IMG/VR virus record: IMGVR_UViG_3300045988_125590
Location: 1 to 64,000 of that record
DNA length: 64,000 nucleotides
Source of the DNA: a virus
Strand: one strand, 5' to 3'
Part shown: positions 26,385 through 64,000 of the stretch, piece by piece
Layout: the number at the start of each line of letters is the position of its first letter
Numbering within the stretch: position 1 is the stretch's first letter
Notes under the pieces: model-generated
Told to the model about the DNA's origin: nothing
Databases searched by the model: none
Seen by the model: the letters and a program-made list of their open reading frames with translations, nothing else
Program-made: the position numbers and the translations under genes

Positions 26385-26386
26385 AA

Positions 26387-29389: not shown

Positions 29390-30236
29390 TTTAAGAGTAA
29401 ATCCCTAACTAGTCCAACTTGGGACAGTTTGAAGATTAAAATCCAATAGTTTAGGCTTTTTAAAGAAAGTTAATCCTACATTTCCAGGAGATACATCATC
29501 AACTACTACAGTACCATTGGTATATGCTCTATATTGTACATTTGGATCATTGACTTTTCTAAAACCACTCTTCTACATAGCTTTATCCAGTTTACCAACA
29601 TACTTTGGAAAAGTCTTTTCACTAAGGACTTTTACTTTCTTCTAAATGAAAGTTGGAAATCTTTTAGACCCATCCCTCACATATCCTACAAACTTTAGAG
29701 GAAGGGAATTTGGAATTGCATTCCTTTTCAACATTTCACCACTTCCAACCTAAGTTATCTTTCCTACTGTAGTAGGAGAATTTCTTATTACAAGGGCTTC
29801 TGAACCCTATCCTATTTTATAAGGAGTTAAGGCGGATAACTTACCTACTGTAACTCTTCTAGAAACAGAAGGTAAAACACCTTTAAAAGAACTTGCAGGT
29901 CCTACAGTTATAAGGGAAGTTCCTATGTTCTTTACATTATCTTTAGCATAATTAAAATTAGACTATATTTTCTTCTAATCCTTTTCTTTAGAAGGGTCAT
30001 AATGAGTTTGCTTTCCAAATACTCCATATCCAAAGAAGTTATCATTATAGAAGTTCTACATATTCTAATAGTACTTAGCTTTGTCTGCATCATAGATTAC
30101 TGCTTGATTTCTTTTAGCAGCTTCCTATAATCTTCTCTACCTAATTCTAGCCTACTGTTCTTTAGTAAGTCGAAAAGCTAGAGGTTGTTTTCTAACAACT
30201 CTAGTATTATCCTATACTGCAATACCGCCTCTCTAA
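29390..30236 (-). CDS. Hypothetical protein, TAG-recoded (boundaries approximate)
   Basis: Minus-strand frame from ATG at ~30236 is open for ~280 codons if the ~13 TAGs are read as sense: MIKFQRGGIAVQDNTRVV... Confidence 0.3.
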
Positions 30237-30239
30237 AAC

Positions 30240-30461
30240 TTAATCATTCATTTTACCTTTCCAAATTCCAGTTACTGAATCTATTCCTAGTAATAAACAT
30301 ACTGCATATATAAAAGGTTCTATCATTAGAGGGGCTTGAATAGAAGATATTGTACAATAGACTAACACAAAAATAATAATAAGGAATCCAATTACTCCAC
30401 AGACTCTTTTACTACTAATGCCAGAATGTGAAGTAATCATCAACCTAAGAAATTCTTTCAT
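30240..30461 (-). CDS. Small two-TM membrane protein, holin candidate
   Basis: 73 aa; two hydrophobic helices (VCGVIGFLIIIFVLVYCTI, FIYAVCLLLGIDSV); near the virion-lysin gene. Confidence 0.4.
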   Translation of the reverse strand: MKEFLRLMITSHSGISSKRVCGVIGFLIIIFVLVYCTISSIQAPLMIEPFIYAVCLLLGIDSVTGIWKGKMND

Positions 30462-30970
30462 AATATTATAAGAATAATTATAGCTCTTATACCTAATTAA
30501 TATTATAATTATATATCTGTGCTATTGGATTTAATCCCTATTCTTTATTCCACTAATTAATAATCTATTTATCTTTATTTCTTCCTCGGTTCATTTCTAT
30601 ATTATAGAATGCAGGTCTATTATTATACCTCTTCTATTTTAATTTCTACTTAAATTGATTAAAGTTCTGTACATTCTATAAATTCTTATATCGCCCAACA
30701 GTCAAAGAATCAGATGCATTCTTAGTCCAATCCTGCAAGTTAGTTGCTCTTTTACCAAATGAATAAAATTTATTAGGTCTTCCATCTTCTATTAGAGATA
30801 AATGGGCTGTATCAAAAGCAGCCTAAGCTGGAATACCTTTATTTAGTAGAGCTACATATCTTTGAGTTATTTGGGGCATAGTGTTATCAATCTTATAGAG
30901 ATTCCCTCCAGTTTGTCTTTTTGGAACTAACTACATACTATACAAAATTTTAATTGTTATAACGGTATTC

Positions 30971-31957
30971 TCACGTCTAATATGCGAATTTAATTCGTTT
31001 ATTCATATTCATCTCATTATTACCAGCTCTCTCAAAGTGCTTTGCAAATACTTTAGTGGCGTCAGAAATAGTATTAGTGTTAAGTAGTTTCTAAAAAGCT
31101 TTACTTTCTGTAGAATTTAATTCTTCCCATATAAATTCTAGCTGCTATGATACAGTGGGATTCATTCCATACTTTTGAATGAGCCTCTATTTACGAGGAC
31201 CTAACCATTGTGCCAACCCAAAGGCTTTACTAGATTTATTTATTGCAGTGTGCTTTCCCCTGCTTTCCTACATTAGATTTCCTACTATTCCTCTAGCCTA
31301 AGCATCTGATAATCCTTTATTTTTAAAGAAGTTTAAAGCGTATTGATTAAATTGACTATCGTTTATAGTTCCTAGGATTCTTCTAACACTTTTAATTTTT
31401 AGATTTGGAAGTAGCCTTTCAACTATTCCTAATTTCTTTCCAGCTGCATCTATAATATATATCTATCCATTATCTATTCTACTTATAAGTCCTATATGCT
31501 AGCCACTAGGACTATTCTTACTTCCAAACCAGATTACATCTCCAGGCTATGCCTACTATAGATTAATTTCTTGTCCAACTTTCCCCTGCTAAGCTGCAGT
31601 TCTAGGAAGATTAATTCCTACACTATTAAAGACATACTTTATAAGTCCACTACAATCAAATCCAGAACTTGGACTAGAACCTCCCCAACTATACTTTCCA
31701 CCTAAGAACTATCTAGCCTAGTTAATTACTTTCTAAGCTGCAGAAGAGGTATTCTCAGATTTAGAAGGAGTATAATTAAAAGTAGGTTCCTGAATGTCCT
31801 ATTCAGGTACATCTAGGAAACTCCAGTCTATATTTGAGTCTTCTACTTCCTAAGTAGGCTACTACATTAACTGTATTTCCTGATAATTCTATTGCACATC
31901 TGGGGTAACTATATCTGGTGGAGATACCGATTCAAATGTTGTAAATAATTCAGCCAT
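30971..31957 (-). CDS. Peptidoglycan hydrolase: N-terminal NlpC/P60 (CHAP-like) peptidase plus C-terminal phage-tail-lysozyme-like domain; TAG-recoded
   Basis: Hand translation with TAG=Q: [25 protein letters not shown]...[29 protein letters not shown]...GQHIGLI (Cys-His NlpC/P60 core), then [37 protein letters not shown] (GIAQW-type lysozyme motif). ATG overlaps the upstream TAA. Confidence 0.55.
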
Positions 31958-32259
31958 TACATTAAATTATTTAAATTAATCTCAATTTTATATGGAATAT
32001 TATCTAAATATTCTTTTACATCTTTATTAGTCCAATCTATAGTACACCGAGCTATTTCTTTACCATCTTTAAAAAAGCAAGCATACTAAGAGGGTAACAA
32101 ACATGGACAAGCTTTAAAGAGAATCAAAGCTTGTTTAAAATTATTCGTAATAACTTTTTCACTATAATAAGTATTATGTGCAAATATTATTTTAATGCAA
32201 TCAAACGTATAGGTGTTATTTCTAACAAGTGATGAGAAGTCATTCTCCATTTCCTAGTT

Positions 32260-33619
32260 GATTGGAAGCCAATGCTCCTACTACTGGGATTCCTAAGGCT
32301 ATAGTTTTTCCATATAAGTTATTAAGAGATTCATTAGTAAATATCTATCTAGCATTATCTATTTGAGTAAGTTCTTCCTCAGATGCATTTGGGTGATTTC
32401 TTTTGTACTAATTTACAGCACCTGCTCTGGCTCTTGACTCTTGAGGAGTCTACCAATACTTTACTCTATCCCCGATCCAATGTCTAGCTTCCACTTCAGA
32501 CATTCCATATTTAGTTTGCAATTTGTTCATTAAAGTAGTAAACTTATTAGGGTCTATTTCCAGTCTATCATTAAGGGCTTTAGCATTTCTAAGAACCTTA
32601 TCTAGCGCATTCTATTCAATTGGAGATAAAGTTATTTGAGGTGTAGCCCACCCAGTTGAGCCGATATTAAAAGTACCGTGATGCATTCCTTCATGTATTG
32701 CTGTATAGTAGGGATGTGATGCCTAATTAGATATAGCTATAAAATGTTCAGATGGATACTAATTAGTATGTATGCTCTTAGGCAAGAATTGAGAGTATCC
32801 CTAAACGCCTTTACCCATATCCTCCACCATAACGTTTACTGGTCCAAACCTATCACTCATAGGGAGTTTTTGAGATAGAACTCTTCCCTATAAGTTCTAA
32901 AAGGCTTTTATTTCATCCTGGGTCAAACCTCTTGAAGCAGCCCTAGTTTCCCATTGTGGGCTTCTATACCACATCATTATATCTCTAACACCTTCATTAG
33001 CTTCCTATCTTATCTACTATGGTGTTAGCTTAGTCATCTGTTCCTTAAATGCCTTCATTTCTTTTGGAGGAATTATAGTAGAAGTAATAGGATCGAAGAT
33101 AAATGTAACATTCTGGTTAGAAGTTTTATTATCCTTAATTCCCTAAAACTTAACTGCATCTGCTCCAGACTATTCAGCTTCTCTAAGTATATGGTTGCGC
33201 AGTTTATTTTTACCCTGGGCAGGAATATCTCCAATCTATACCATTGGTTTCTTAAGAATCTATTGAAGCTATATTAATATTGGTCTATCATTCATAAACC
33301 CAATATCTTTTTTCTCTGATACCCACAATCCATTCTTTGGCGCTTCATGCTCTTTAGCATCCCACCTTCCTTTAAATACTCTTTTAATTTTAAAATTAGG
33401 ATTGTTAGTTCTATGCCATACTGTACGAGTTTCTGCAGGACTCCATCCAAGTTGTCCTGGAAATATATATGGAGCTTTGAGATCTTTTACTTGTCCGAGA
33501 CGCGATGCCAATAATCTACCCCTTGCTTTAGAGGCTAACTTAGGAGAGACTTTCTACAAGAGTTTGATAATTCCTCCTAATTGCTTCTTTTCAGTTTTAA
33601 TAGGTTCCCATCTTTTCAT
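32260..33619 (-). CDS. Hypothetical ~450-aa protein, TAG-recoded (boundaries approximate)
   Basis: Minus-strand ATG at ~33619 (MKRWEPIKTEKKQLGG...); open with TAG as sense to a TGA near 32260. Confidence 0.3.
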
Positions 33620-34341
33620 AATTAATGATTCCAAGTTCTAGCATTGGCAGCAAATGTAGCCCTCTTTCTAATCTTAGGATTCGGGCTATTCTTTCCTTTC
33701 TGAATGCAGGCATCAGTTACATTTCCTCCACAGTACTCAGTAAACTTACCTCTATTCTCCTTTTTAATACGTATCTTGTGTCCTTTTTTATAAAGTTCAA
33801 TTGGATCTGAATAATTCTCTAACTTTAAAGGGAGTTTAAGCTAAGAATTATCCTCAAAAAACTAAGAAAATTCGGTTAATTGATTCTAAGTATATTTCAT
33901 ATTAGATTTTGTTAAAAGTAACACATACTTTATTTGGGTATTCAAATTTAATATTTATATTTGTATAATTGAAATGAATATAACTCATAAGTTAAATAGA
34001 AAATTTCTCGTATAAATATACTTGTACAAACTCAAAGACTAATAGATTAACTATATAATATCTAACAAATGAGTTACAAAACAAACTTAAATTCTAGACT
34101 ACTTGTTGCTGTAATTTTAACTATAGTAGGAAGTGGTTTATTAATTGCTGGATTTTCAGTTCCTCCTCTAGGAATAATTGATGGTTCAGTTTTAGTAGCA
34201 TTCGGAGAGACTAGTACATTTGTCGCTGCATTGCTTGGAATAGATTACAATTATAAATATTAGATGTATAAAAACAAAGTTCTTTCAGGACTTAGTGGAA
34301 ATGGGAAATGAAATAATGAAGTAAACTAAATAAAGTGTAAT

Positions 34342-35211
34342 ATGAAAATTGATAAGCAGAATGGAACGGTTGCGTTCAATGATCAAGAGCATATTTATTG
34401 GAATGTAAATGACAATAAGAGATATGTCTCAGTTACTACTCTAATTCACAGATACACTCAAGAATTTGATAAGGAATTTTGGTCTTCCTATAAGGCTTTA
34501 GAAAAATTGCTTCCAAAGAAGTCATGGGAAATAGAAAAGAAGTCTTTACTAAATACTAAGAAGTTCAATAAGGAATTGTTGAGTTTATATGATATAGATG
34601 AGAATGATTTCAATGCGGTTCAGCAAGACATCTTAGATGCTTGGGATGAAGAAAATAGAAAGTCGTGTGAAAGAGGAACTAAAATACACTCAGAAATAGA
34701 AAATTCCTTTTATGATCATCCTACCGATATTTCTTTAAAGAAGTTTGGTTTAGGAGGAAAATTCGAGTGTAAAAAAGATTATTCAGAATTGGATTTAGAG
34801 CATGGAGTATATCCAGAGTATTTGATATATAGAGAATCAGATGATGGAATCTTACGCATAGCAGGACAGGTGGATCTTATAATTAAATCTGGAAATGAAA
34901 TAACAATTGTAGACCACAAGACAAATAAAAAAATTGATCAAAAGTCTGGATTCAATACAACTACAAAATCAAATACCAAGATGAAATATCCTCTAAATAA
35001 TCTGATGGACTGTAATTTTTATCATTACACTTTACAGCTCTCTACTTATGCTTGGATGTTGCAGAAGATAAATCCAAATTTCGTAATTAAGGACTTGATT
35101 TTGAATCACTATGATCATAATGGTAATAACACATTATATCATTGTGAGTATCTGAAGCATGATGTAGAAAAAATGCTTTATCATTATAAGAAAAGTCTCA
35201 TTTTGGAATAG
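34342..35211 (+). CDS. PD-(D/E)XK-family nuclease-like protein
   Basis: GTKIHSEIE ... RIAGQVDLIIKSGNEITIVDHKTNKK resembles the D...(D/E)xK core of RecB/Cas4-like exonucleases. Standard code, no TAG. Confidence 0.4.
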   Translation: MKIDKQNGTVAFNDQEHIYWNVNDNKRYVSVTTLIHRYTQEFDKEFWSSYKALEKLLPKKSWEIEKKSLLNTKKFNKELLSLYDIDENDFNAVQQDILDAWDEENRKSCERGTKIHSEIENSFYDHPTDISLKKFGLGGKFECKKDYSELDLEHGVYPEYLIYRESDDGILRIAGQVDLIIKSGNEITIVDHKTNKKIDQKSGFNTTTKSNTKMKYPLNNLMDCNFYHYTLQLSTYAWMLQKINPNFVIKDLILNHYDHNGNNTLYHCEYLKHDVEKMLYHYKKSLILE

Positions 35212-35338
35212 AAAAGAAGTGCAAGAAAAAGAATAGAATACTAATCATTATTAAGGGCATATTGAATCCCAATTTTGGATTAAATGTCAACACTATACAC
35301 TAAAAGCAATCTATTCTTTTTCTTTTTATTTTTAGATT

Positions 35339-35607
35339 ATGAATGTATTTGATATTATTAATGGTCATACAAAAGAAGTCCTTAATCTTAACTAGGACTT
35401 AAGTAGCAATAGATTAAAAATCTGCTATAGTTGTCCTCTATACTCAGGTAAGTTTGGGGGAATGTGTAATAACAAATTATGGTTGAATGTTAATACAGGA
35501 GATGTAAGTAGTGTCCAGAAACCTGGATATAAACGTGGATGTGGGTGCAGATTGCAAGCTAAGACTAGACTTCCAAATGCAGTATGTCCACTAAGCAAAT
35601 GGTAATA
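35339..35607 (+). CDS. Small Cys-rich (zinc-ribbon-like) protein, contains in-frame TAG
   Basis: MNVFDIINGHTKEVLNLNQDLSS...CYSCP...CGC... read with TAG=Q. Confidence 0.3.
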
Positions 35608-35625
35608 ATTAAATGTTAATGATTT

Positions 35626-36216
35626 ATGAAAGACGTAAGACTTTACTCAACAGAGAATGAAAAAATTGCTAAAGAATTACTTGGAACAGATAGTAATTTT
35701 ACTTCAGTAAACATGAAAGAAAACTCACTTGATTCTTTAATTAAAAAAGAGAAGGCTCGCAAGTTTAATTCAGAAGTAGAAAAGTACAATGAAAAACTGG
35801 AACAAAATAATAAAGATTTTGAAGAAAGCCAGGATAAGGTAGAATATGATATTTCCAAAGCAGAAATAAAGCCAATGTTTTCTCGTATTCTAGTACAACC
35901 TTTTAAGGTTAATCCGTTCCAAAAAATGAAAGTGGAAAATGGACTTATAATTGATACTGGAGGATATACCCCTCATACTCAACTTAATGAGCAAACTGGT
36001 AGATATGAAGAACAAAAGCAATTCATAGTTACAGGATGTGTCGTTGAAGTTGGACCAGAGGTCAAGTACTTAAAAGAAGGAGATGTTATTTTTTATAGGG
36101 TTGATACTGCAGTACCTGTTCCGTTCTTTAAGCAGGGATTCATAAGTTTAGCAGAGAGTCAAATTATAGCAGTTGTTAATGAAGGTCTACAAGACCGTTT
36201 TAATAATATTAAATAA
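35626..36216 (+). CDS. GroES-like co-chaperonin (Hsp10/gp31-like) with ~90-aa N-terminal extension
   Basis: C-terminal 100 aa IKPMFSRILVQP...GLIIDTG...FIVTGCVVEVGPEV...LKEGDVIFY...QIIAVVNEG follows the GroES pattern. Confidence 0.5.
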   Translation: MKDVRLYSTENEKIAKELLGTDSNFTSVNMKENSLDSLIKKEKARKFNSEVEKYNEKLEQNNKDFEESQDKVEYDISKAEIKPMFSRILVQPFKVNPFQKMKVENGLIIDTGGYTPHTQLNEQTGRYEEQKQFIVTGCVVEVGPEVKYLKEGDVIFYRVDTAVPVPFFKQGFISLAESQIIAVVNEGLQDRFNNIK

Positions 36217-36453
36217 TATGGAAGAGAATAATATATATTTTAATCCTGGCTAGATAGTATAGCTTAAGTAGGATATACCTAATAAGCCAAGGATGATTGT
36301 TGTAAAGAAAGAAACATCTTTATTCAAGCATGACTCAAGAAGGGAGGATAAACGTCCTATCCTTATAGGAATTAGATGTCGTTGGTTTACTACTACTGGG
36401 GCTATGCAAGAAGCGGTGTTTAATACTAAAGACATTGAATTAATTAAAGAATA

Positions 36454-37791
36454 ATGGCTAACAATTGGAATTATGGAGACTCCTATTTTGATGGGAACTC
36501 CTATAAAACAAGAGCGTAGGCATTTGCTGCCGCCAGAAAGAATGGCAGGGGAGTATTTACTTATAAAGGCAAGTAGTATAATACAATGTAGAAAGGTGAG
36601 AATGCTGATGAGTTTAGAAGAGCTCACGCAGACTATGACTACTTCCTTGGGAATGTAGCAAAGGACTAGGGAGGATGGAAACCATCTGACCCAGTCTAGA
36701 CTTCTTATAAGGTAAATAAGGTCCCAGATGCATATACAAAACCCCTTCCAAAGAGTTCAAAGCCTCAAACTCCAGCAAGAACTAAATTATCTATGTTTAC
36801 TAATGATGATATTAGAAATTTAGGATTTAGAAATTATGCTGGAATGGTAAGTGCTATTGGAAATAAAGCTAATGCAAATAATAATTTTGTAAAGGCTATG
36901 ATTGATAGATATGGCTCTGATACTAGTAAGTGGAATCAGAATACTATAGAAAATGATCTCGGTGTTAAAGGAACTTATAGAAGTTTTGGAGGAGGTGATT
37001 TTGGAGATATGTCCAGAGCAATGGCTGGATGGGTAGGATAGAATAATGGGGAGATAGATAGACAGGATTTACAAAGTAGAACTGGCTCAGATGGTGTAGT
37101 CTATGCTAATAGTAGGGTAAAAGACTTGTTTGACAAGGTACACTTAAAACCTAAGACATTTACCTTTAATACCAGTTTATTTGGGACTAATTTATTTGGA
37201 ACACCTAAGAAGCAATAGGGAGGTCAACTTAATATGAATGAACAGCAATTACAATAGGCATTTCTACAGTATTTAATGTAGAAAACTGGAGCTCAAAATG
37301 AGTAGCAATTAGAACAAGTAGTTTAGTAGTTAGGAGAGGATGGCTTAAAGTAGGCATATGCTCAGTTTATGCAGGAAATGTAGCAATAGCAGGTTCAAGC
37401 TGCTAAGTTTGGAGCTAAACTCAATTATATAAAGAAACTTAATGGTTAGTGTCCAGAAGGAATGGAAATGCATTACTACAAACAGGGAGGAAGACTTTGC
37501 AGAAAATGCATGCAGGCTAAATAGAATGAAGGAGAAAGGGAAACTCCTTCTAATCCAATTGATGCTTTCAAGTGCGGAAGAAAAATAAAGAAAGACTAGC
37601 ATGGTAAAAAGCTGCCTCAAATAAAATCTAATAAAAATGGTTAGGACTAGGCTACTAAGGATTCTATTGCAGCTAATTGCTACAATGATTAGGATGTTCA
37701 AATAAACAGACCTGGTTCTTATAAGAAGAATGCAAAAGGACAAGTACAGTGGACTCCTGATAGAACTAAAGCACCTTATAGGAAAAAGTAA
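36454..37791 (+). CDS. Hypothetical protein with TAG-encoded Gln-rich segment; TAG-recoded
   Basis: Frame open from ATG 36454 to TAA 37789 except TAG codons. Segment ~37245-37420 has ~15 TAGs giving QQLQQAFLQYLMQ...QEMQQQVQAAK. Confidence 0.35.
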
Positions 37792-38412
37792 TCTTTATAA
37801 GTGTAGAAATATGAATTAATGAATTATGGTTTAGGATATATTTGTTTATAATAATCAACTCAACAGAGTTGATCTCAATACACATGAAATATTATTGGTT
37901 AAGGAATTTAAAGCCCTCCTTGAACCAAGCAGAAATAAATGCAAAGAAGACCCAAGTGGATTAATGGGTCTTCGAGCATTTAGAGAATTTACCTATATAT
38001 GGCTTGCTATATGTTGGAAATCTGTATATAGCGAGTATGATGAATAGGTAAGACATTAGGAATCCCTAAAGGATGCAAACCTAACGGAAGAAGAATTTAA
38101 TAACCCGGAATTTAGAGCAGCATGTAGGAAATTTAGACAAATACAAGAATCTAATCTTTCTATTAAAATGCTACATGCTGCACAGGAAACTGTTAATAAG
38201 TTCATAGAATACTTTAATTCAGTGGATCCTTTAGAGAGAGATGAGTAGACTGGAAAGCCCGTGTATAAAGTTAAAGACATTATGGCTGAATTGAGTTCTT
38301 TAGGAAAAGTTCATGATGAGTTAGTCGATTTGGAAGGAAGAGTCAAGAAAGAATTAACTGAACAATCTTCAGTACGTGGTGGAGCTATAGACGGATACCA
38401 ACCTAACTTTTA

Positions 38413-50308: not shown

Positions 50309-50325
50309 CAAAAAATATATAAAGT

Positions 50326-52345: not shown

Positions 52346-52375
52346 TTATAGAAATCTTCCTAAAATAATTATATT

Positions 52376-54303: not shown

Positions 54304-55026
54304 ATGTTTACAGCGATAAAAATTGAATCTACCATTGAGCCTAAAAGCTTTGAATCATTAAACAATGGTATTTGGTATTATAACTATGACGTAGAGAAGA
54401 AAGTAGTTAAGGTCTCTTCTGTGAGGGGAGACGAAATAGAAGAAACAGAGGAAACTAGATATTCTTATGTTCAAGTAAGAATTTCTGGAGAACCTACTTT
54501 ATCTAAGTGCTTTGAGGCGATACTTAGAGCATATAAAGATGAACACAACACTAGCCTTTATGATGTTCTCCTATCAGAGGGAACTAATGACTAGATAGAT
54601 GATATTAATTACAATATAAAAGTTGATTTTAATATTGCTCCAGAAAAGTCACCATTAGATAGAGCTAAAGAGTTAGTGCTTAGAGAGATTGACTAGTATG
54701 ATACGTCTTCTAATGTTAATGGGTTTATGTTAAATGGAGTCTAGGTTTGGTTAAGTAAGGATACCAGAGTCGGACTTATGAACTCTATAAATATTGAGAA
54801 GAATGCTGGAAAAGAGGAATCAGTTTTATGGTTAAATGGAATTTGCATTACCGTTAACTGTGATGCAGCAGTTCAAATGTTAAGCTCTTTGGAGTTATAT
54901 GCATTAGCTTGTTATAACAAAACTGCAGAGCATAAGTTAGCAGTTAGTTAGCTAACTGATGTATCTAAAGTGAAGGCTTATGATTATACTGCTGGTTATC
55001 CAGATAAGTTATCATTTAAGATTTGA
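54304..55026 (+). CDS. Hypothetical protein, TAG-recoded
   Basis: ORF 54304..54594 continues through TAGs to TGA 55024. Confidence 0.35.
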
Positions 55027-55136
55027 TGTCCACTTTTGCCTTATCCTGTTTAATACTATCACTTGCTATATATATTGGATATACAGTATACATTAGAATT
55101 AAATACAAACCAGACTGTATATCATAGAGCTATTAT

Positions 55137-55514
55137 TTGCTTAATAATGGAAATATTTTCACTGCATGTATAGTGGCAATTGCATTTCTTACCTTCCCAG
55201 CGTGGGTGGAGATTAGTCCTATATGTTTTCAATTTCTCCCATTCTTATCAGTAATAGCTTTAGTATTAGTTGGATTATGCCCAAGGTATCTAGGGCAAGA
55301 TAGAATCCCTCATATAGCGGGAGCTAGCATAACTTGTATATTATCCATAGTTTGGAACATAGTTTCTGGAACACTATTAATTCCGGTATTATTGCTAATA
55401 GTATTAATACTTATATTTGCATTCAATGTTAAAGATAAGCTATTCTGGACAGAATGTTTAGCGTTCTTAAATATTTATTCTTCAATAATTATCAAAGCGA
55501 GCCTGGTCTTATGA
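55137..55514 (+). CDS. Multi-pass membrane protein
   Basis: 125 aa, 3-4 predicted TM helices; followed by a hairpin plus T-run. Confidence 0.45.
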   Translation: MLNNGNIFTACIVAIAFLTFPAWVEISPICFQFLPFLSVIALVLVGLCPRYLGQDRIPHIAGASITCILSIVWNIVSGTLLIPVLLLIVLILIFAFNVKDKLFWTECLAFLNIYSSIIIKASLVL

Positions 55515-55530
55515 CCAGGCTTTTCTTGTT
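55495..55530 (+). terminator. Rho-independent terminator candidate
   Basis: agcctggtc-ttat-gaccaggct stem-loop followed by tttcttgttt. Confidence 0.45.
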
Positions 55531-55731
55531 TATATACATATTCCGACTTAGAAATTTTTTCTATTATTTTTAACATTTGTTAACATTATTTAATTTGGAT
55601 TCATTAAAATAAGTTGTAATTTTGATTGTTACAAAATTGTACTAATTTAGTTACGAAGCGCTTCAGTTTAAAACCAGATTCACTTTAGTATTATAGATCT
55701 TTTATTATAACAATCTTCTAAATATAATTTT

Positions 55732-56727
55732 ATGTCTGACAGTAAAGTTTTTATGTTCCCAGAAAATGGAACAAATAACAACGGACTAATATCAATGTTA
55801 GCTCCTCTACTTCAGTAGAGAGGAATAGATCCTAATGTATTGCTTGCCACAAGGAATAATTCTGGCTTCGGAGGAGAAGGCGGATGGTTCATGTGGGTAA
55901 TATTCTTATTCTTCCTCATGGGATGGGGAGGAAATGGCTGGAATGGTTTCGGAGGAAACCGTGGAGCAGGTCAAGTAGGAGCAGATTTAGGAAACTTAAT
56001 TAACAATGATAATGGTCGAGAACTTTTAATGCAAGCTATTCAAGGAAATGGTAACGCTATTAGTCAGCTTGCTACAACCCTTAATTGTACTCTTGGTGAT
56101 GTTTAGAGTGCCATTAATGGAGTTATGTCACAGATTTAGGGAGTAGGAAACCAAGTTGGTATGTCTTCTCAGCAAATTATTAATGCAGTCCAGGCAGGTA
56201 ATTGCCAAATTGCTAGCAAAATTGCAGATTGTTGCTGCGAAAATAGACTAGCAACATGCCAGCAAACAAATACTCTGCAGAATGCAATAAATACAGTTGC
56301 AAATGGACAAGAGAGAGGTTTTTCTTCTGTTGCCTACGAGACACAAAGACAAACTTGTGACCTTAAAGATAGTATAAAATCTGCAGCAGATTCAATCTTA
56401 GCAGGTCAGAGAGATGCAGAGATGAGAGAAATGCAAAATAAGATAGATGCGCTAAGGGAGTCAAATTCTCAGAAGGACGTTGCTATAAATAATGGTCATC
56501 AAACTGCAGTATTCAATCAAATGATTCAGTCCGCAACTGCACCATTAGCTGGTGCTCTAGCTACTTTACAAAGTGATATAAATGGAGTTAAGTGTAAGCT
56601 TCCAGAGACTGTAACACTTCCATATAGTTGTGCGACAGCAGTTCCTACTAATTTAGTTTATGGATATAATCTAGCAAACTATGGATTAGGAGGATGCTCA
56701 TGTGGAAATAACTCACTATGGGGTTGA
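55732..56727 (+). CDS. Membrane-anchored Gly/Asn/Gln-rich protein, TAG-recoded
   Basis: ATG 55732 in frame with ORFs 55840 and 56161. TM segment GWFMWVIFLFFLMGW; Cys-rich segment NCQIASKIADCCCENRLATCQQ. Confidence 0.4.
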
Positions 56728-57555
56728 GAAAGGAGGGAATATGATATTACCTGCTTATATTAATGTAAATATTGGTGGTATCCCTGCACTTCGTTCATTA
56801 TCTGTAACTGTTACATCTTCTAAAGTTCAATATGATTTTAACAATCACAGAAATGTAGGAAGACCTTATCGTGGACTATTAGTTATTAATTTAGCATAGC
56901 CTATTCCAACGGGAACTACTACAACTCTTCCAGTAGTGTTTACCACTTCTGGAGGTAATGAACAGCCACTAGTTAAGGCAAATAATGCTCCCGCAACGGT
57001 AGAAGATATATCTGGAACTGGGATATACTTAGTTTGGTATGAAAGCTAGACTAATACCTTACAATTAATTAATCTATAAAATTTATAATATGTTTTCAGC
57101 TTTGAGATAGGGCAGTGTGGTTTACATCTTGGAAAAGGGAGAAAACCCAGTTCTGAAGGTAGGACAAGTAGTAAGTATAACACAACCCAACTATAGTAGT
57201 AATTTTTTAATGAATGGATCAACCATTGATATTAATGTAAAGGTTAATAATTAGAATATGGACTTTAAGAACGTTCCGTCCTCTTAGTCTGTAGCTAATT
57301 ATAATAATGCTGTTATAACAGAAACAAAAGAATTAATGTCAAATGAGGTTGACAATATGTTATAGAACAGTAGGAGTATTGTGGATAGTGTTACTTATCA
57401 CAATAATATAATAACTTCCTGTGAAAGTATCCTTAAGGAGCTTAATCCTAGATTTGCTAAGGAAAAGGAACGGGACGAAGATATTAATAACCTAAAGGAT
57501 AAAATGGGAGGTATAGAATCTAAGATGGATAAAATATTGGGCCTACTCCAGAAGG

Positions 57556-57804
57556 ATGGAAATAAATAACATTATTGCTATGAAAGGATTTATTGAAATA
57601 AAGGAAGATTCTTATGAAGATACTATTGAGCATCTTCACAGAATAAAGCTACTCGCATGTAAACTTATAAAAATGCTTTCTGAACATTCAGAAGTTTATG
57701 ATAAAGATGACGACTATGAGGACGAGGATGAAGATATGAGAGATAGACGCTACGGCTACAAAGAGTCTATGTCTCGCAAGTCTAAGGGAAGATATAACTA
57801 TTAA
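57556..57804 (+). CDS. Small acidic hypothetical protein
   Basis: 82-aa ORF; terminator-like hairpin downstream. Confidence 0.35.
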   Translation: MEINNIIAMKGFIEIKEDSYEDTIEHLHRIKLLACKLIKMLSEHSEVYDKDDDYEDEDEDMRDRRYGYKESMSRKSKGRYNY

Positions 57805-57810
57805 TAATAG

Positions 57811-57848
57811 GTAGGCGGTGGCAGATTATTTTGCTTCCGCCTATTTTC
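57811..57848 (+). terminator. Rho-independent terminator candidate
   Basis: ggcggtggcag-attattttgcttcc-gcc stem then tatttt. Confidence 0.45.
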
Positions 57849-57858
57849 ATTTAAGACT

Positions 57859-58236
57859 ATGAGAGAGGATTTTACTGAATATGATATTAAACCTGAGGGA
57901 TTTATTAACTACTTAAGGTACTACGGCCCTCATTTTAATAAAAAGTTATGCGAATTTGCATGTAAGCAAATGTAGAAGATGGAATATTCTAAGGAAAAGC
58001 TTGATGTACTATTACAATCCCATAATATCGAGATCCAAAATGCTAAGTTACACGACGCTGTATATGTCGCTAACTGGTGCAGAAATGTTTTCTATGGATC
58101 TAGTATTGCTGATGAGAAGCATTTTGTTCTCTTTATTAAAGACATTTTTGATAAGGAGCCTGATTTCATTTTCAATAGGTGGTACGCAGATATGGCTAAG
58201 TAGGGTATTCCTATAGAATGGGAAGATATGATTTAA
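57859..58236 (+). CDS. Hypothetical protein, one in-frame TAG
   Basis: MREDFTEYDIKPEGFINYL...; ORF 57979..58203 extended through TAG to TAA 58234. Confidence 0.35.
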
Positions 58237-58320
58237 ATAAATGCCTAGTGTTCATTTCGTTTGGACATTAGGCATTTATTGTTTATAATTGCAATATAAA
58301 CTAATTGACAAGAATTTGTT

Positions 58321-58920
58321 ATGGAAACTATTAAAAGTAATTACATTATATGTTTAGACAATGGACATGGGGTAAATACTCCAGGAAAGTGTAGTCCAGA
58401 CAAAAGGCTTAAAGAGTATTAGTATGCTAGAGAGATAGTTAAAAGACTAGAATCTAAATTGAAGGAAAATGGCTACAAGGTATATGTGGTCACCCCAGAA
58501 TAGGAAGATATTTCTCTAAGGGAAAGATGTCAAAGAATTAATAAGGTATGTAGAGAAAATGGAAATAAGGCTATTTCCATCTCTGTACACTGTAATGCTG
58601 CTGGAGCAGATGGTAAATGGCATACTGCCTCAGGCTGGAGTGTATTTATATCTTAGAATGCTTCTCAAAATTCAAAGAAGCTTGCTAAGACTCTTTACGA
58701 TGAGGCTCTTCTACTAAATCTTAAGGGAAATAGAGCTATTCCAAAAGAACGTTACTGGGTGTAGAATCTTGCGATGTGCAGAGATACTATTTGCCCAGCA
58801 GTGCTAACAGAAAATCTATTTTAGGATAATAAAGATGATGTTAATTTTTTACTCTCAGAAAAAGGGAAACAAGCTATAGTAGATGCTCACTATAATGGAA
58901 TTGTAAAATATTTAGGATAA
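58321..58920 (+). CDS. N-acetylmuramoyl-L-alanine amidase (Amidase_3 family) endolysin, TAG-recoded
   Basis: LDNGHGVNTPG, ISISVHCNAAG and NLAMCRDTICPAVLTENLFQDN match the Amidase_3 zinc-ligand and catalytic motifs; ~6 in-frame TAGs. Confidence 0.65.
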
Positions 58921-60869
58921 TGGACTTAGAAAAGGAAATTCTGCAGTTAAAAGCTAAAATATCTGAATTAGAAGCCTCCAAAAAGAATAATCTGTTCGGA
59001 AGTACTTATAACAATGCCGGATCTTCTTCTGCAGACTTCCTTATAAAAACCAAAGGTAAGGTAAAAATACAGTATGGATCCAAATTTATTGATCTTATAA
59101 AAGATGGAAAAATAAATGTGGATGCTAAATTTATATATAAGGAGAAAGAAGTAGGAGTAAAGGACGGTATTTATGTTATCGGAGAGGGAGAAGACAGTAG
59201 AGTAGTTCTTCTTATAAATGGAACACAAATAGATTTAAAAGGAGATGTTGGAACTACATACGTTTCTTTTCTTGGCCCACAGGAAACCTCTTCTGATGGA
59301 AAGCATATAGCTTTAACTAACATAGGTTTTATATATCCAAGTTTATAGGATATTAAGGATACTAGCTTGAAAGATGGTATAATATATATCGAATCTGAGT
59401 AGAAACTTTATATAGTGTAGGGAGGTCAATTATCAGAATATGAAATGTCTATACCAACTCCCTATTCTAAGTAGTTCATAATAGCTAAAGAAGATTCTAA
59501 TGAAGGAGCTTTAGTTATATATGGTGAAGGTATATATAATTCTATAGCCTTTGATTCTTTTCACATATACGAAAAAGATTCTGATGGATGCATTCTTACA
59601 AAGAATAATTTAAAAGTATTAGTAAATGGGAACTAGAAAATGATAGTTAAGGATGATATAATTATATGTTCTAATCCTGTGTCCTCTACCATATTTTAGT
59701 CAATCGGAGCATCTCAAGCTAATGGCTTTAGATTATATGATAATGGAAGCCAATCTACATTAGAAGTTGATAATTTAGTTGTAAGAAATTCTACAGATAA
59801 TAACACTCTACAAACTCTACCTGAGTATTGGTATAGTACTAATAATATTATCAATTCTGCTTCATATTATACAGACGATATCGTGGAAGAGACCGCCTTA
59901 CAATTTACCTTAAAACTCAAATATGCTAATGAGTTCCAAGAATAGGATAAATTAAAGGTATATGCTTAGTATATTCAGAACTCTCTAACAGTACAAGATC
60001 TAATTCCATTAGTAGTCCTTAGCGTAAACAGTGATGATAATTCAATTAGAGTAAAAATTGATCAATCTCAAGTATCTGCGGCTAGTATAGATTAGATTGG
60101 GAGTGATTCTATTATTTCTGGTTTAAGTAATTAGATATTGTTCTTAACAGAAAGAATTGATAAAGCTATTCCAACAGTTAATCATAAAGGATTCGCAATA
60201 ACTAAGGGAGACAAGAAAGTAGTCTAGGCAGGAACCCTAGACGAATTAGAAATAAAAGTAAAGGAATAGGTTGTTACTGGGATTGGACTCTATACTGATT
60301 AGTTATTTTTAAAGAAAGCCTCCTATATTGATACCTATACCCTAGAACCTAACGACAAATCTCAGAACTTTGCCTCAACTGAGTGGGTGCAGAAGTATAT
60401 AAATAATTTATTTCCAAGTGGAAGTATTATAATGTTTAACGGATAGTCCTCGACTATTCCATAGGGATGGGCTATATGTGATGGAAAGAATGGTACTCCT
60501 AACTTAATTGGAAAATTCATAAAGGCTTCTGATAGTTCCGGAAAAACTGGAGGAAACTCAAGAATAGAGCTATCAGTCGACAACTTACCTAAACATTCTC
60601 ATTCTATTCCAGAATTATAGGGAACTGCTATATCTGCTGGAGAACATACTCATACTACAAGTGCTTTACAAGCAACTACTAAAGTTGCTTAGGGAGACGA
60701 AATATCTGTAATGTCTACTGTTACTACTGTAGAGGGAACTACATCATCAAATGGCACTCACACTCATGGTGTAACTATTGAAAGCAGTTCTACTGGATAT
60801 ACAGGAACAGGAACTCCTCTAGAATGGGAACCACCGTATTACTCCTTGATATATATCATGAAATTGTAA
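58920..60869 (+). CDS. Tail fibre protein with C-terminal phage-tail-collar-like domain, TAG-recoded
   Basis: ATG overlaps the amidase TAA. C-terminus PQGWAICDGKNGTPNLIGKFIKASDSSGKTGG...NLPKHSH resembles the collar-domain consensus (P.GW..CDG....YP.L....G...G....LPD). Confidence 0.5.
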
Positions 60870-60949
60870 TTTCAAAATAAACTTTAATATAGTTCTTTTT
60901 TGAAAAGTTAAAAAATATTATATTTACTAATAAACTAAAAATTTTAATT

Positions 60950-62023
60950 ATGGAAATAGGAAATAATGATGACATTGACTTCATCGATGAATTAGACGAT
61001 GAACAGCAATCTAATGAACAAAAACAGGATCCAGGTCCTGATAATCATCAAGAACCAGAGAATCCAGAGCCAAAGGATCCAGACAATACAGACACTCCAG
61101 ATCCAGAGGAAGGAAAAGAGGATGACTTTCTTACCTCTCTTCTAAAATCTAGAGGAATTGAAGATAAATCTAAGATTAAGTTTGCAACAGAAGAAGGTGA
61201 TGTAGAAGAAGTAGATTGGGATAGTCTAAGCAATGAAGACAAACTTAACATTCTTAGTTCTTCTGAAAGCACCCCTGAAAACGGCTTAGATGAGTCCGAA
61301 ATTCAACTTATAAATGCTATCAGAAATAGCGGCATGAGTCCGTCTGAGTATCTTCAATTTATAGGAAATGGCGAAGTTGAGCGCTACATTCAAAATTCTC
61401 AAGAGCCACAATATGAAATTGACGCATATTCAGATGATGAACTATTTCTCATGGACTTTATGAGCAGAATGGGAGAGGTAACTGAAGATGAGGCAACCGA
61501 AGCTTTAGAGAGGGCTAAAGCTAATGAAGGTCTGTTTAAGAAACAAATAGAAGCTATTCGTAACGAATATAAGCAAGCGGAACAGGAGAATCAAATGCAA
61601 GCACAGCTTGAACAAGAATAGATTGCTCAATAGCAATATGATTAGTTTTCTGACTAGATTGTAGACGAAATCAACAACCTTAAGGAGATTCAAGGATTTG
61701 AGTTAAATATGGAAAATAATGATATGCAGGAACTTTATGACTTTATTACTGGTCGAGATGCTGCAGGAAATAATTATTTAGCCAAAGCTTTATCAGATCC
61801 TCATGTCTTAGTTAAGACTGCATGGTTAGCTCTAAATGGTGATCAAATGGTCAACGACATTACAAGCTATTTTCAGAAAGAAATAGCAAGTGTTCGTAAA
61901 GAAAGTTACAAGAAAGGAGTTACCGATACTCAAAAGAAGATGGAGAAAACTGATAATGTTGTATTTAAGGATACACACACTAAGCCATCAAAGGAAATAT
62001 TTGATGACCTTGATGAACTTTAA
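60950..62023 (+). CDS. Acidic coiled-coil protein, scaffolding-protein candidate, TAG-recoded
   Basis: ORFs 60950 and 61709 share a frame and are joined by 4 TAGs. Highly acidic; lies immediately upstream of the capsid-like gene. Confidence 0.4.
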
Positions 62024-62053
62024 TTTTTAAATTAATCTTTATATTTTAGTAAT

Positions 62054-63483
62054 ATGTTAGTTGCAAATTTTACAAGCAGAATCCCTACAATGGGTTAGAC
62101 AAAGACATACGAGGACTGGTCTAAGTACCTCGGAAGTAAACCTCATCGTATCGGTGTAGTTGCCCGTATGTACACAGATAATACTCTTAACTTCATTACT
62201 GATGGTTTGAGAAATATCTTCTACAAGGATGAGAAAGCAGACCAATTCCAACTTTCTAGTTCACTTTTATTTGAGTGGATTGTGGAAACAAATAATATCA
62301 AGAAAGTTGAATTTGCAGAAGTTCCAACTGAAACAGGAGAAAATGGAACAGAAATCACAATGGCATTCAGAGAAAATTATTATCAGAAGTATGATATTTT
62401 CCGTATTGATAAGACAAAGCAGCAATGTCAAGTAGTAAGCCGTCCAATTAGGAAACGTGACGATTATTGGGAAGTTCAGGTACGTCTAATCGACAATGAT
62501 TACGATACAATACTTGATACTGATGGATGCCAGGTAGGTGACACTACTACATTCCAATCTGTAGCTATGCCTGAACTATCAGAGGAAGGTTACTCAAAGT
62601 TCCAGAGCCAAATGGAACGTCACCGCAATTTTATGACTACATTCCGTGCAGATGCTAGCTGGTCTAGTTTGTATGCTATTCAGGAAAATGTATTCATGAG
62701 TATTGCTGATGATAAGGACCAAACCAAGTCTGAGGGTGTATATAAGATGCTCAAGAAAGAGAAGGAACTTCTTGACACATTTATGTATGCAATGAATACA
62801 GGTCTTACATTCAATAAAGGTAATATTGATGTAAACGGTAAGGCTACTATTTCAGAGCCAGAAACTGGACGTCCTATCTATATTGGTGAGGGACTTATCC
62901 CTCAAATTGAAGCTGCTGCTAATAAGTATTGCTATAGCAATAGACCTAATCTACAGCTGTTTAACATGATTATGTCAGATATGGCTGATAAGGCTTAGTC
63001 TGATACAGGTAATAAATTTATCTTCATTGTTAACAGGAAGATGTGGAATGACCTACAAATGACTCTTGGAGAGTATCTTGCTAATTATAGGACTGATGGT
63101 ACTTATATGTATTCTAAGTCTGCTAACAAGGGATTAGGTGGATACGTAAAGGTAGGTGCTACTTTTGATACTTATGAGTATGCAGGAAACCAGGTAAGCT
63201 TTGTAGTTGATCGTGCATTGACTCGTGAATATCCTGCAAAGGGATATGGTGTATGCATCGACCTAACTGCTGATAAGACTTCTGGTACTCCAGCTATTGC
63301 TAAATTCAGCTTGACTGGTAAGGACTTCATGACTAACAAGATTGTTGGTGTTGGAGGCTATGATGGAAAGAGTTCTGGCGAAGTTGCTAGCAACGTTGCT
63401 GGTTCTAAACTTGTTATGATGGGTTATGCAGGTGTTGCTGCATTTACTCCTTATAGAAGTGTAATCGTAAGAGAAGCTTAATA
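62054..63483 (+). CDS. Major capsid protein candidate, TAG-recoded
   Basis: ATG 62054 through ORFs 62168 and 63041 (same frame, 2 TAGs), ~475 aa. No SD. Followed by a strong hairpin terminator. Family not verified. Confidence 0.4.
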
Positions 63484-63508
63484 AAACTTATAATAGAGGT
63501 TAGATTGA

Positions 63509-63548
63509 CAGGAGGAGCCGTAAAACCCTCCTCCTGTATGTTTTTAAT
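63509..63548 (+). terminator. Rho-independent terminator candidate after the capsid-like gene
   Basis: caggaggag-ccgtaaaaccc-tcctcctg stem followed by tatgttttt. Confidence 0.5.
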
Positions 63549-63564
63549 GATAATATGAACTAAT

Positions 63565-64000
63565 ATGGCAACAAATACTGGAATAAAAAAGACAGTGACC
63601 AAAACTGATGTCGTTTTTGACGACAAAATAATTACATTAAGAAGCGTATATGACAAGGCAAATATTAAATATATGATTATGCCTTGTAAGAATAAGTATG
63701 GACAATATCCAAGTTGTATAAAAAGAGTTAATTCATAGGGCGATATGATTATGAGTGAGAAGGAAAAGAATGAGTTCTCTGAGGGAACTGCAGTATTCTT
63801 CCCAGAAAACCACTTATTTGAAGTTACCAGTGGAAAAACTTATAACTTAAACGATATTTATGATAAGGCAGAATGGGAAGCAATAGAAAATTGCCCTTAT
63901 ATTGCTAAGAGCCGAGATGCCCGTGATGAGAAAGGTAATCTAATCATAGATGGACCTAAGTCTACTCCTAGTAAACCTACTAGGAATGGTGTGGCTGAGC
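63565..64000 (+). CDS. Partial CDS (C-terminus outside window), hypothetical, contains in-frame TAG
   Basis: MATNTGIKKTVTKTDVVFDDKIITLRSVYDK...; open to the window end with TAG read as sense. Confidence 0.3.

Follow-up and report, generated by a model that had tools for sequence, protein, structure and literature searches.

CrAss-like phages with genomes of 145–192 kb carry suppressor tRNAs and read through TAG or TGA mostly in late genes (Yutin et al., 2021; PMC7886860), and metaproteomics has proved the reading of TAG as glutamine in a crAss-like phage of 191 kb (Peters et al., 2022; PMC9523058). A lysis-timing model, together with recoded intron endonucleases, was described by Borges et al. 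(2021/22; bioRxiv 10.1101/2021.08.26.457843). The stretch of DNA analysed here (64 kb, hereafter the window) is part of the genome of a large, distant, gut-type crAss-like phage, whose close relatives have genomes of 165–185 kb (contigs of 165.7–175.1 kb among those used to judge genome size); it is about 98% identical to IMG/VR UViG 3300045988_110911. Membership in the large-genome Crassvirales is indicated by homology of TerL and portal to crAss-like proteins, with the major head protein placed by a weak match. In tblastn searches, TerL matched many crAss-like phages at 23–28% identity, as well as Flavobacterium and Azobacteroides phages, with the best match to MT835470 (44.7%), and the best PDB match of the portal was PhiCrAss001 gp20 (7qog, E=1.2e-10).

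Compared by features rather than by a tree, the phage shares with the Zeta-type crAss-like group its size class (as judged from relatives), many tRNAs including suppressors, read-through of a stop codon chiefly in late genes, code switching over short phylogenetic distances and possibly self-splicing introns; its TerL and portal resemble crAss-like proteins, and no difference in kind was seen (PMC7886860). The giant RNAP/transcription block of that group would lie beyond the window. With the phage of Peters et al. it has in common the size class, a suppressor tRNA, structural proteins in which TAG is read as Gln, and a gene block for which code 11 is predicted, although the Gln assignment derives from peptides there and from codon exchange and tRNA similarity here (PMC9523058). 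As in the Jade, Agate and crAss-like phages of Borges et al., a suppressor in standard code lies by a heavily recoded cassette, the cell-wall-hydrolase genes are the most recoded, and a mobile endonuclease is recoded inside a standard-code region. Unlike in their code change module, the tRNA gene has a gene for a small protein on either side, and neither a release factor nor an aminoacyl-tRNA synthetase (GlnRS included) was found within the 64-kb window. The initial annotation had likened the recoding to that of crAss-like phages, and the published work agrees; since the pattern matches all three reports, it is already known.

Extent and boundaries of TAG recoding

When ORFs are taken from stop to stop with a minimum length of 100 aa, they cover only 43.8% of the DNA between 29390 and 64000 in the standard code, compared with 96.0% when TAG is sense. 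The same measure gave 53.7% with TGA and 65.0% with TAA as sense; neither reading restores the ORFs, and both codons remain stops. Genes called with TAA and TGA as stops abut their neighbours with little overlap, and family matches run uninterrupted across the in-frame TAGs, which number 230 in the recoded region (TAA and TGA alone taken as stops in this and all following counts). Thus, the proposal of the initial annotation that TAG is sense, drawn from fragmented ORFs, stands on both coverage and domain matches. Its remark that every stop checked in about 12 genes at 1–28300 is TAA or TGA is true of all called genes but is built into their definition, because ORFs were delimited by these two codons. 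The main features are listed in Table 1.

Table 1. Coordinates of the blocks, genes and RNA features of the window, with in-frame TAGs and supporting matches.
Feature	Position	Strand	In-frame TAGs	Evidence or remark
Standard-code-compatible block	806..28300	-		about 20 tRNA genes, tmRNA, auxiliary enzymes
PD-(D/E)XK (PDDEXK_5) endonuclease	9609..10055	-	4 (sense)	Pfam PF11645, E=1.2e-10, aa 12-111; phrog_5018, E=3.6e-20, aa 7-109
Glucosaminidase-domain cell-wall hydrolase	11947-12468	-	0	in standard-code block
tRNA-Gln(UUG)	21539-21610	-		in block 806..28300
Terminator-like hairpin	28439..28470	-		14 bp stem and T-run; consensus scan
ORF87, small standard-code ORF	28453..28716	-		directly downstream of tRNA(CUA)
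tRNA(CUA), predicted amber suppressor reading UAG	28733..28807	-		ARAGORN anticodon cta; Rfam tRNA model, 57.6 bits
ORF146, acidic, 146 aa	28847..29287	-	0	directly upstream of tRNA(CUA)
Most heavily recoded block	29366..33900	-	46 per 1000 codons	53-70% of Gln codons are TAG
Gene	29366-30247	-	14	
Gene	30487-30936	-	9	
NlpC/P60 + Phage_lysozyme2 (tail-lysozyme)	30971-31957	-	20	Pfam NLPC_P60, E=1.4e-17; Phage_lysozyme2, E=4.1e-25; PDB NlpC/P60 matches
HExxH-containing protein	32240-33619	-	18	
Gene	33622-33900	-	3	
Low-TAG genes opening the rightward arm	34069..36216	+	0-1 each	
PD-(D/E)XK exonuclease	34342-35244	+	1	TAG at codon 290 of 300
GroES-like protein	35626-36216	+	0	
Recoded packaging, virion and lysis block	36179..64000	+		PHROG matches spanning TAGs
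Gene	36454-37791	+	21	
TerL	38419-40773	+	19	phrog_6681, E=2e-71, aa 55-719
Portal	41010-43187	+	26	phrog_6547
Tail and fibre proteins	44112-54163	+		PHROG matches
Tail protein	52376-54163	+		family match uninterrupted by TAGs
Amidase endolysin	58321-58920	+	5	phrog_435; PDB matches
Tail collar fibre	58920-60869	+	17	
Major head protein	62054-63481	+	2	weak PHROG match, E=3.6e-10

The in-frame counts differ between the presumed early and late regions as the initial annotation anticipated: 64 TAGs in 1394 codons (46 per 1000) for the minus-strand genes at 29366–33900 and 166 in 9440 (17.6 per 1000) on the plus strand, where the genes counted start at 34069 and continue to the end of the window, versus only 10 in 5672 codons for those genes of the standard-code block that reach 100 aa. 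Off-frame TAG density is alike across all three blocks. Four of the ten belong to the one mobile endonuclease gene; three precede the first ATG of a standard-code ORF and are therefore probably start-call artefacts, and the other three lie at or past the ends of two ORFs, which may terminate at TAG. Essential genes carry up to 26 TAGs each, and hardly any occur in the virion proteins that are probably the most abundant (0 in 323, 2 in 475 and 2 in 475 codons).

Several boundaries and labels given at the outset need adjustment. The adjacent block is indeed compatible with the standard code, most genes at 973–29287 having no TAG, and the assignment of 1–28300 to that code holds in so far as no TAG falls inside a domain match, except in the inserted endonuclease. 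For the same reason the recoding is not strictly confined to lysis and structural genes, although the main block is late and structural. On the plus strand the switch had been put at 35339, but recoding starts at about 36.2 kb (36179), beyond the low-TAG genes; the sign of the GC skew reverses at about 34 kb. The names "lysis" for the minus-strand block and "early" for the standard-code block are interpretations: PHROGs liken the NlpC/P60 protein to tail-associated lysins, and the presumably early block has genes for tRNAs and auxiliary enzymes but none for replication. In the PDB the amidase endolysin matches N-acetylmuramoyl-L-alanine amidases, among them CwlV (1jwq), and the major head protein had no PDB sequence match.

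The amino acid inserted at TAG

Codon exchange supports glutamine as the probable reading of UAG in the recoded genes. When 28.4–50.8 kb was compared with five relatives of 85–98% nucleotide identity, 102 of the 134 exchanges of TAG were with CAA or CAG, as the initial annotation would have it, and the remainder included 11 with Lys and 9 with Glu codons but none with Tyr. The two-step exchange of TAG and CAA (44 events) far outnumbered the one-step exchange of TAG and GAG (5 events). As a control, every sense codon swapped mainly with its synonymous partner, and the commonest partner of CAG was TAG (29, versus 23 for CAA). In independent assemblies, TAG positions are either kept or swapped for CAA/CAG. 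Moreover, the 10 CAA/CAG codons and 19 TAGs of TerL would together bring its Gln content to 3.7%, a value near the 4.3% of homologues.

Distant standard-code homologues, judged by their alignments, are uninformative as to the residue at TAG positions. For TerL, the residues that TAG-free distant relatives show in the TAG columns are E, Y, D, H, V and Q, with BLOSUM sums of 165 for Glu and 106 for Gln. Bacterial NlpC/P60 homologues have M/A/Q/D at one TAG position and K/Q/R/Q at the one before PGD, and one TAG of the amidase aligns with a conserved hydrophobic residue (L/I/C). Alignments of these three proteins, suggested in the initial annotation, thus yield variable residues and do not single out Gln; its argument from NlpC/P60, in which Gln was said to be expected at the TAGs, carries little weight, the conserved Gln of LPRTAAXQ being the ordinary codon after the TAG. 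The mixture of residues may reflect an origin of the TAGs by single-base change from GAG, AAG and TAY at tolerant sites.

The suppressor tRNA and its unit

The minimum free energy fold of tRNA(CUA) is a cloverleaf, and its CCA end is encoded. With the phage's own tRNA-Gln(UUG) it has in common U1 and the D-arm UAUGGUGUAAUGGU(U)AGCACA. The identity set of E. coli GlnRS comprises U1, G2-C71, G3-C70, G10, U35 and A37; tRNA(CUA) has U1, G2-C71, G10, U35 and A37, but C3-G70, U1·G72 and A73. By overall identity among the phage tRNAs, a tRNA-Arg came first with 52 matches and tRNA-Gln second with 50. A precedent is supE of E. coli, a tRNA-Gln with the anticodon CUA that inserts Gln at UAG, which GlnRS tolerates because U35 is kept. 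However, supE is a weak chromosomal suppressor under which UAG is still a stop, whereas essential genes of the phage would depend on its suppressor at hundreds of sense TAGs.

The tRNA shares its strand with the most heavily recoded block, sits just downstream of it, and is syntenic in six recoded relatives (L003, L004, L010, L006, L007 and L011). Among 68 TerL loci, 36 show the same TAG pattern and 31 are in standard code; a tRNA(CUA) was present within 10 kb in 12 of the former and none of the latter, a difference whose significance is overstated by our hypergeometric estimate (about 2e-4) because the loci are related. Overall, tRNA(CUA) appears Gln-like and travels with the recoding.

Its neighbours form with it a TAG-free unit at the boundary of the two code blocks, probably closed by the hairpin downstream as a terminator. 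The arrangement ORF146-tRNA-ORF87 is kept at about 45% amino acid identity. A homologue of ORF146 stands directly upstream of tRNA(CUA) in L006 and L007, with others in L011 and L044, and all 177 homologues come from phage contigs of 165–180 kb; searches for a Pfam or PHROG family and for a significant fold match were negative. Homologues of ORF87, which has no PHROG family, occur in L003, L004, L044, L006 and L011.

Proposed mechanism and its alternatives

Taken together, we consider it highly probable that the phage tRNA(CUA) recodes UAG to Gln and, following the literature, that this may gate the late proteins. In the genes for packaging, the virion and cell-wall hydrolysis, UAG would be decoded as Gln, with UAA and UGA as the sole stops, by a suppressor derived from a tRNA-Gln-type body and presumably charged by the GlnRS of a host that itself probably uses the standard code. 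Its gene is part of the standard-code unit ORF146-tRNA-ORF87-terminator at the block boundary. Genes free of TAG should be translatable by the naive host, and TAG-rich genes would give truncated products until the suppressor accumulates, so that recoding may act as a translational gate, or temporal switch, delaying the virion and lysis proteins and also the selfish endonuclease.

It is rather unlikely that TAG is Gln with suppression being constitutive, and that the uneven distribution of TAGs stems, for instance, from selection to avoid an inefficiently decoded codon in proteins made early or in quantity, or from differences in age or origin of the blocks. The near absence of TAG from the probable most abundant virion proteins fits such selection, and the TAG-free cell-wall hydrolase within the standard-code block speaks against a gate, as does the lack of enrichment of a Bacteroidota-type promoter motif (5 matches against 2.5 expected). 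The block structure is nevertheless sharp and follows gene function, the suppressor unit is TAG-free, and, in keeping with the prediction of the gating model, the standard-code block contains a selfish endonuclease that is recoded; in addition, Peters et al. (PMC9523058) found no recoded peptides in intracellular early proteins. Decoding by the host, through a TAG=Gln code or a suppressor of its own that makes the phage tRNA dispensable, appears very improbable. Recoded genomes with no detectable suppressor have been reported (Yutin et al., PMC7886860; Borges et al., bioRxiv 10.1101/2021.08.26.457843), and only a third of the recoded TerL loci (12/36) have tRNA(CUA) nearby, an absence that is uninformative because the loci span part of each genome. 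The tRNA occupies a conserved locus in this phage and its close relatives, however, and a host that itself took TAG as sense would leave the TAG-free block without a ready explanation.

A sense reading as Glu, Lys or Tyr is extremely improbable. Glutamate is the commonest aligned residue in the TAG-free distant TerL relatives, and has the top BLOSUM sum, and across all TerL loci GAA and CAA have about equal frequencies at TAG-aligned positions; against this, the exchanges with Gln codons mirror the behaviour of every control codon, the tRNA body appears Gln-like, and Gln was the residue found by proteomics in related phages. That the TAGs are real stops, owing to decay into pseudogenes, mis-assembly or occasional programmed read-through, is next to inconceivable: the fragmented standard-code ORFs are all that favours it, and it is contradicted by the failure of TAA or TGA as sense to restore the ORFs, the conservation of TAG positions and the presence of tRNA(CUA), besides the number of TAGs per essential gene and the same pattern at 36 related loci.

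The endonuclease itself sits in an insertion of about 750 bp (9333–10080) that is missing from five relatives (L081–L085), including the 98%-identical contig, and its TAGs, at aa 12, 39, 50 and 60, lie inside the domain match. Several relatives have insertions of about 1 kb in TerL, and a single group I intron recognised by Rfam, next to an HNH gene, is likewise present as an insertion.

TAG as a sense codon in two gene blocks

TAG is read as a sense codon in this phage. The initial annotation held that this reading restores long genes at 29390-64000, and the coverage of that range by stop-to-stop ORFs of at least 100 aa indeed rose from 43.8% in the standard code to 96.0% with TAG as sense, compared with 53.7% and 65.0% in the TGA-sense and TAA-sense controls. 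Gene calling with TAA and TGA as the sole stops yielded 79 genes on the expected strands. The regional TAG count, proposed as a check, agreed: in-frame TAGs made up 64 of 1394 codons in the minus-strand genes at 29366-33900 and 166 of 9440 in the plus-strand genes between 34069 and the end of the window, versus 10 of 5672 in genes no shorter than 100 aa lying left of 29350, with the off-frame TAG density being alike across all three blocks. Family matches run uninterrupted across the TAGs, which identifies the long TAG-sense ORFs as real genes. The recoding of the range was thus upheld, with the heavily recoded plus-strand block starting from ~36179 and not from 35339; the exonuclease at 34342-35244 contains a single TAG and the GroES-like gene at 35626-36216 none. 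The window has a GC content of 35%; the reversal of its GC skew near 34 kb is consistent with two divergent gene arms. In the minus-strand arm, the 459 aa product of 32240-33619 (18 TAGs, no family match) may be a metallopeptidase, judging from its HExxH motif (AIHEGMHHG).

Features of the window discussed in the text
Feature	Coordinates	Strand	Remarks
tRNA array, tmRNA, glucosaminidase, group I intron with HNH gene	left of 29350	-	contents of the standard-code block
SPFH/Band 7 protein	973-3348	-	long Ala/Glu/Lys-rich tail; adjoins small membrane protein
Amidoligase_2, GATase_6/7, phiEco32-like COOH-NH2 ligase, peptidase C26/GATase cluster	3435-7402	-	0 TAGs
PD-(D/E)XK (PDDEXK_5) endonuclease	9609-10055	-	sense TAGs at aa 12, 39, 50, 60
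tmRNA	11575-11905	-	Rfam RF00023, 63 bits; not called by ARAGORN
Glucosaminidase-domain cell-wall hydrolase	11947-12468	-	N-terminal hydrophobic segment; TAG-free
AAA ATPase adjoining DUF2828/DUF7788 protein	12902-16738	-	latter phrog_850, annotated 'RNA-binding protein'
Group I intron	17990-18200	-	Rfam, 57.7 bits
HNH endonuclease ORF	18152-18649	-	no TAG
abiF RNA match	18975-19012	-	beside the group I intron insertion
RAGATH-1 hammerhead ribozyme match	26980-27083	-	74 bits, gathering score 56.3; among small ORFs, standard-code block
Terminator-like hairpin, 14 bp	28470-28439	-	after ORF146-tRNA(CUA)-ORF87
ORF87	28453-28716	-	flanks tRNA(CUA)
tRNA(CUA)	28733-28807	-	suppressor tRNA
ORF146	28847-29287	-	flanks tRNA(CUA)
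NlpC/P60 plus Phage_lysozyme2	30971-31957	-	20 TAGs
TerL	38419-40773	+	phrog_6681, E=2.2e-71, aa 55-719; 19 TAGs in the gene
Portal	41010-43187	+	phrog_6547; 26 TAGs
Tail protein	52376-54163	+	family match crossing TAGs
Amidase endolysin	58321-58920	+	family match; matches solved N-acetylmuramoyl-L-alanine amidases
Tail collar fibre	58920-60869	+	family match crossing TAGs
Major head protein	62054-63481	+	family match

A megablast search with 20 kb of the window gave no nucleotide match among GenBank phages. At the protein level, tblastn with TerL reached many crAss-like phages at 23-28% identity, as well as Flavobacterium and Azobacteroides phages, the best match being a human-faecal phage at 44.7%, and the best solved-structure match of the portal was PhiCrAss001 gp20. 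The IMG/VR contigs of the close relatives are 165.7-175.1 kb long, and one (IMG/VR UViG 3300045988_110911) shares ~98% identity with it. Yutin et al. (PMC7886860) reported on crAss-like phages whose genomes span 145-192 kb, are densely populated by introns and inteins, and encode numerous tRNAs, suppressors among them; everything found in the window fits these large phages. The phenomenon itself is already known and has been experimentally validated in phages of this kind. The observation is confirmed, and its interpretation as a pattern described for crAss-like gut phages is supported after corrections, in agreement with the accounts of Yutin et al., Borges et al. (bioRxiv 10.1101/2021.08.26.457843) and Peters et al. 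(PMC9523058). The window is a clean example of it, with two codes, their boundary and the suppressor tRNA within 64 kb, and opens no new question. For annotation, translation table 11 mis-calls more than half of the 35 kb block as fragments, so that TerL, the portal, the tail proteins and the lysins are missed; the recoded blocks should be called with TAG=Gln, by dual-code calling of the Mgcod type.

TAG behaves as a glutamine codon

The assignment of TAG to Gln stood on codon exchange in close relatives, while the route through homologous residues proved weak. Among 114 full-length database homologues of TerL, the share of Q in the TAG columns was 50%, compared with 4.3% in the background. 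This figure was set aside because it may be circular: at the DNA level, many relatives in IMG/VR carry TAG at the same TerL positions, so TAG=Q was probably used in translating many of the database homologues, and the 50% is partly a product of this. The TAG-free TerL relatives were ambiguous by BLOSUM sum, with Glu (165) ahead of Gln (106); in 13 of them (45-56% identity), the 19 TAG columns held E, Y, D, H, V, A and Q, and Q was invariant in only one column. Alignments of the NlpC/P60 protein and the amidase to PDB structures were likewise discarded as a guide, the TAG positions being variable and not diagnostic, and one amidase TAG aligned with a conserved L/I/C. The NlpC/P60 TAGs had been thought to fall where Gln is expected, but solved bacterial structures place the conserved Gln of LPRTAAXQ at the ordinary codon after the TAG.

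The decisive evidence came from aligning the window at 28.4-50.8 kb with five relatives of 85-98% nucleotide identity. Of 134 site-events involving TAG, 102 were exchanges with CAA/CAG, 11 with Lys codons, 9 with Glu codons and none with Tyr codons. Exchanges between TAG and CAA, which take two steps, numbered 44, far more than the 5 single-step exchanges between TAG and GAG, and TAG was the commonest partner of CAG, with 29 events versus 23 for CAA. Since the control sense codons swapped chiefly with their synonymous partners (GAG-GAA, AAG-AAA, TAT-TAC), the pattern indicates that TAG evolves as a third Gln codon, and in its evolution it behaves as one. With 10 CAA/CAG codons and 19 TAGs, TerL would contain 3.7% Gln, near the homologue background. 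The mixed residues in distant homologues could be explained if the TAGs arose from GAG, AAG, TAY and CAG by single-base change at tolerant positions. For the identity of a reassigned codon, residues in distant standard-code homologues are a poor guide, and it is codon exchange between close relatives that decides.

The suppressor tRNA locus and a proposed gating of late genes

ARAGORN called 20 tRNAs, all on the minus strand, one of which has the anticodon CUA. This tRNA(CUA) scored 57.6 bits in the Rfam tRNA model, folds into a cloverleaf, and has U1 and the D-arm UAUGGUGUAAUGGU(U)AGCACA in common with the phage tRNA-Gln(UUG) at 21539-21610. On the minus strand it falls precisely where the last TAG-free gene gives way to the first heavily recoded one. 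The Gln-like tRNA(CUA) travels with recoding: in a survey of 68 TerL loci, each of at least 8 kb, it lay within 10 kb in 12 of the 36 TAG-recoded loci, and a suppressor tRNA was found in none of the 31 standard-code loci. The remaining locus, L062, appears to be recoded at TGA, its ORF coverage being 0.72 in the standard code, 0.76 with TAG as sense and 0.93 with TGA as sense. The lineage includes standard-code, TAG-recoded and TGA-recoded members. At L039, L029, L013 and L023, TerL contains just 1-6 TAGs, which may reflect early stages of recoding. In nine relatives (L010, L044, L049, L065, L066, L069, L070, L074, L076) the TerL match is ~1 kb longer in DNA than that of the window, which suggests an inserted intron or intein. 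At 90 nt, the tRNA(CUA) of L007 includes either a long extra arm or an insert; L056-L058 have two tRNA(CUA) genes apiece.

The two ORFs flanking tRNA(CUA), ORF146 and ORF87, matched no Pfam or PHROG family. ORF146 has 177 homologues, solely from this phage lineage; one lies immediately upstream of tRNA(CUA) in both L006 and L007 (TerL identity ~60%), and others are present in L011 and L044. Its AlphaFold model was mediocre to moderate (pLDDT 73, pTM 0.43), and Foldseek against the PDB returned nothing below E=0.02 (TM ~0.2). In L010, a close relative (97% identity in TerL), the sequence on either side of the suppressor locus hardly differs from that of the window, but the tRNA body (L010:93-164) differs from that at 28733-28807, being another amber suppressor of the L006 type; this combination looks like cassette replacement at the locus. 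Immediately downstream of the terminator-like hairpin of this unit, GGGAGAGTCCA occurs twice at a spacing of 39 bp (28330-28379, minus strand); as a repeated motif it was rejected, since the window holds only these two copies and 15 of 100 shuffles equal that.

The synteny of the ORF146-tRNA(CUA)-ORF87 unit might be read as a dedicated code-switch operon, in which the two small proteins, both confined to the lineage and one strongly acidic, would aid the suppressor against host release factor 1 or in its charging, the tmRNA would help to handle ribosomes reading through TAG stops, and tRNA(CUA) allele swaps between near-identical phages would mark a modular, exchangeable element of code change. 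We consider this reading, including the roles it gives to the tmRNA and to the tRNA swaps, improbable. The standard-code block gave no Pfam hit to a release factor or GlnRS. The published account of recoding, in which it gates late functions (Borges et al., bioRxiv 10.1101/2021.08.26.457843), is the best-supported mechanism here; ORF146 and ORF87, the tRNA swap in L010 and the tmRNA leave the overall verdict unaltered. By this account, a naive host would translate the TAG-free genes, the suppressor unit among them, and as tRNA(CUA) builds up, the TAG-rich packaging, virion and cell-wall-hydrolase genes would become translatable. Metaproteomics of 191 kb and 94 kb crAss-like phages revealed Gln at TAG and no recoded peptides among intracellular early proteins (Peters et al., PMC9523058). 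Charging by the host GlnRS, the standard code of the host and the timing switch are proposed here by analogy with published phages.

The use of TAG is graded among the recoded genes. Its share of the Gln codons is 53-70% in the minus-strand block holding the NlpC/P60/lysozyme protein, 66% in TerL and 57% in the portal, and 0-15% in what are probably the most abundant virion proteins. TAG accounts for 0 of 323 codons at 49337-50308, 2 of 475 at 50326-51753 and 2 of 475 in the major head protein (all plus strand), whereas the neighbours of these genes have 35-67% of their Gln codons written as TAG.

The standard-code block and its RNA elements

The minus-strand genes to the left of the boundary had been described as early genes in the standard code. 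The block is nearly TAG-free as claimed, but it holds tRNAs, tmRNA and auxiliary genes and not a typical early/replication set, so it is only presumably early. A search for the Bacteroidota-type promoter motif (TTTG-N17-21-TAnnTTTG), made with regard to this label, gave 5 hits versus 2.5 expected, which is not significant, and a sigma-70 scan stayed at the background level. The ligase and amidotransferase cluster resembles a module for modifying peptides or metabolites. The glucosaminidase being TAG-free, the peptidoglycan hydrolases of the phage are not all recoded.

Recoding is not strictly confined to lysis and virion-structural genes to the right of the boundary, as the PD-(D/E)XK endonuclease also carries sense TAGs, which fall inside its Pfam (aa 12-111) and PHROG (aa 7-109) matches. 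It lies within a ~750 bp insertion (9333-10080) missing from all five close relatives, the 98%-identical contig included, and is probably a free-standing homing endonuclease; the recoded intron endonuclease of Borges et al. is a parallel to this recoded gene inside a standard-code block. At 1-28300 the stops checked, in about 12 genes, had all been TAA or TGA; two minus-strand ORFs of this block, 24569-24871 and 25511-25999, may end in TAG, with TAA following 36 and 14 codons beyond, respectively. The TAG at 24569-24571 is also TAG in the one relative covering the site. In both ORFs it may act as a stop or be read through late in infection.

The acceptor and T-arm of the tmRNA are tRNA-like, and its tag frame is read as ARVINMTPAYQAAA followed by UAA UAA. 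The tmRNA is kept in five close relatives, the relatives reached by the search being all recoded, and no mention of tmRNA was found in the crAss-like recoding literature searched; a link to TAG read-through is speculative. The group I intron and its HNH ORF form a ~970 bp insertion relative to the close relatives (17977-18942, minus strand).
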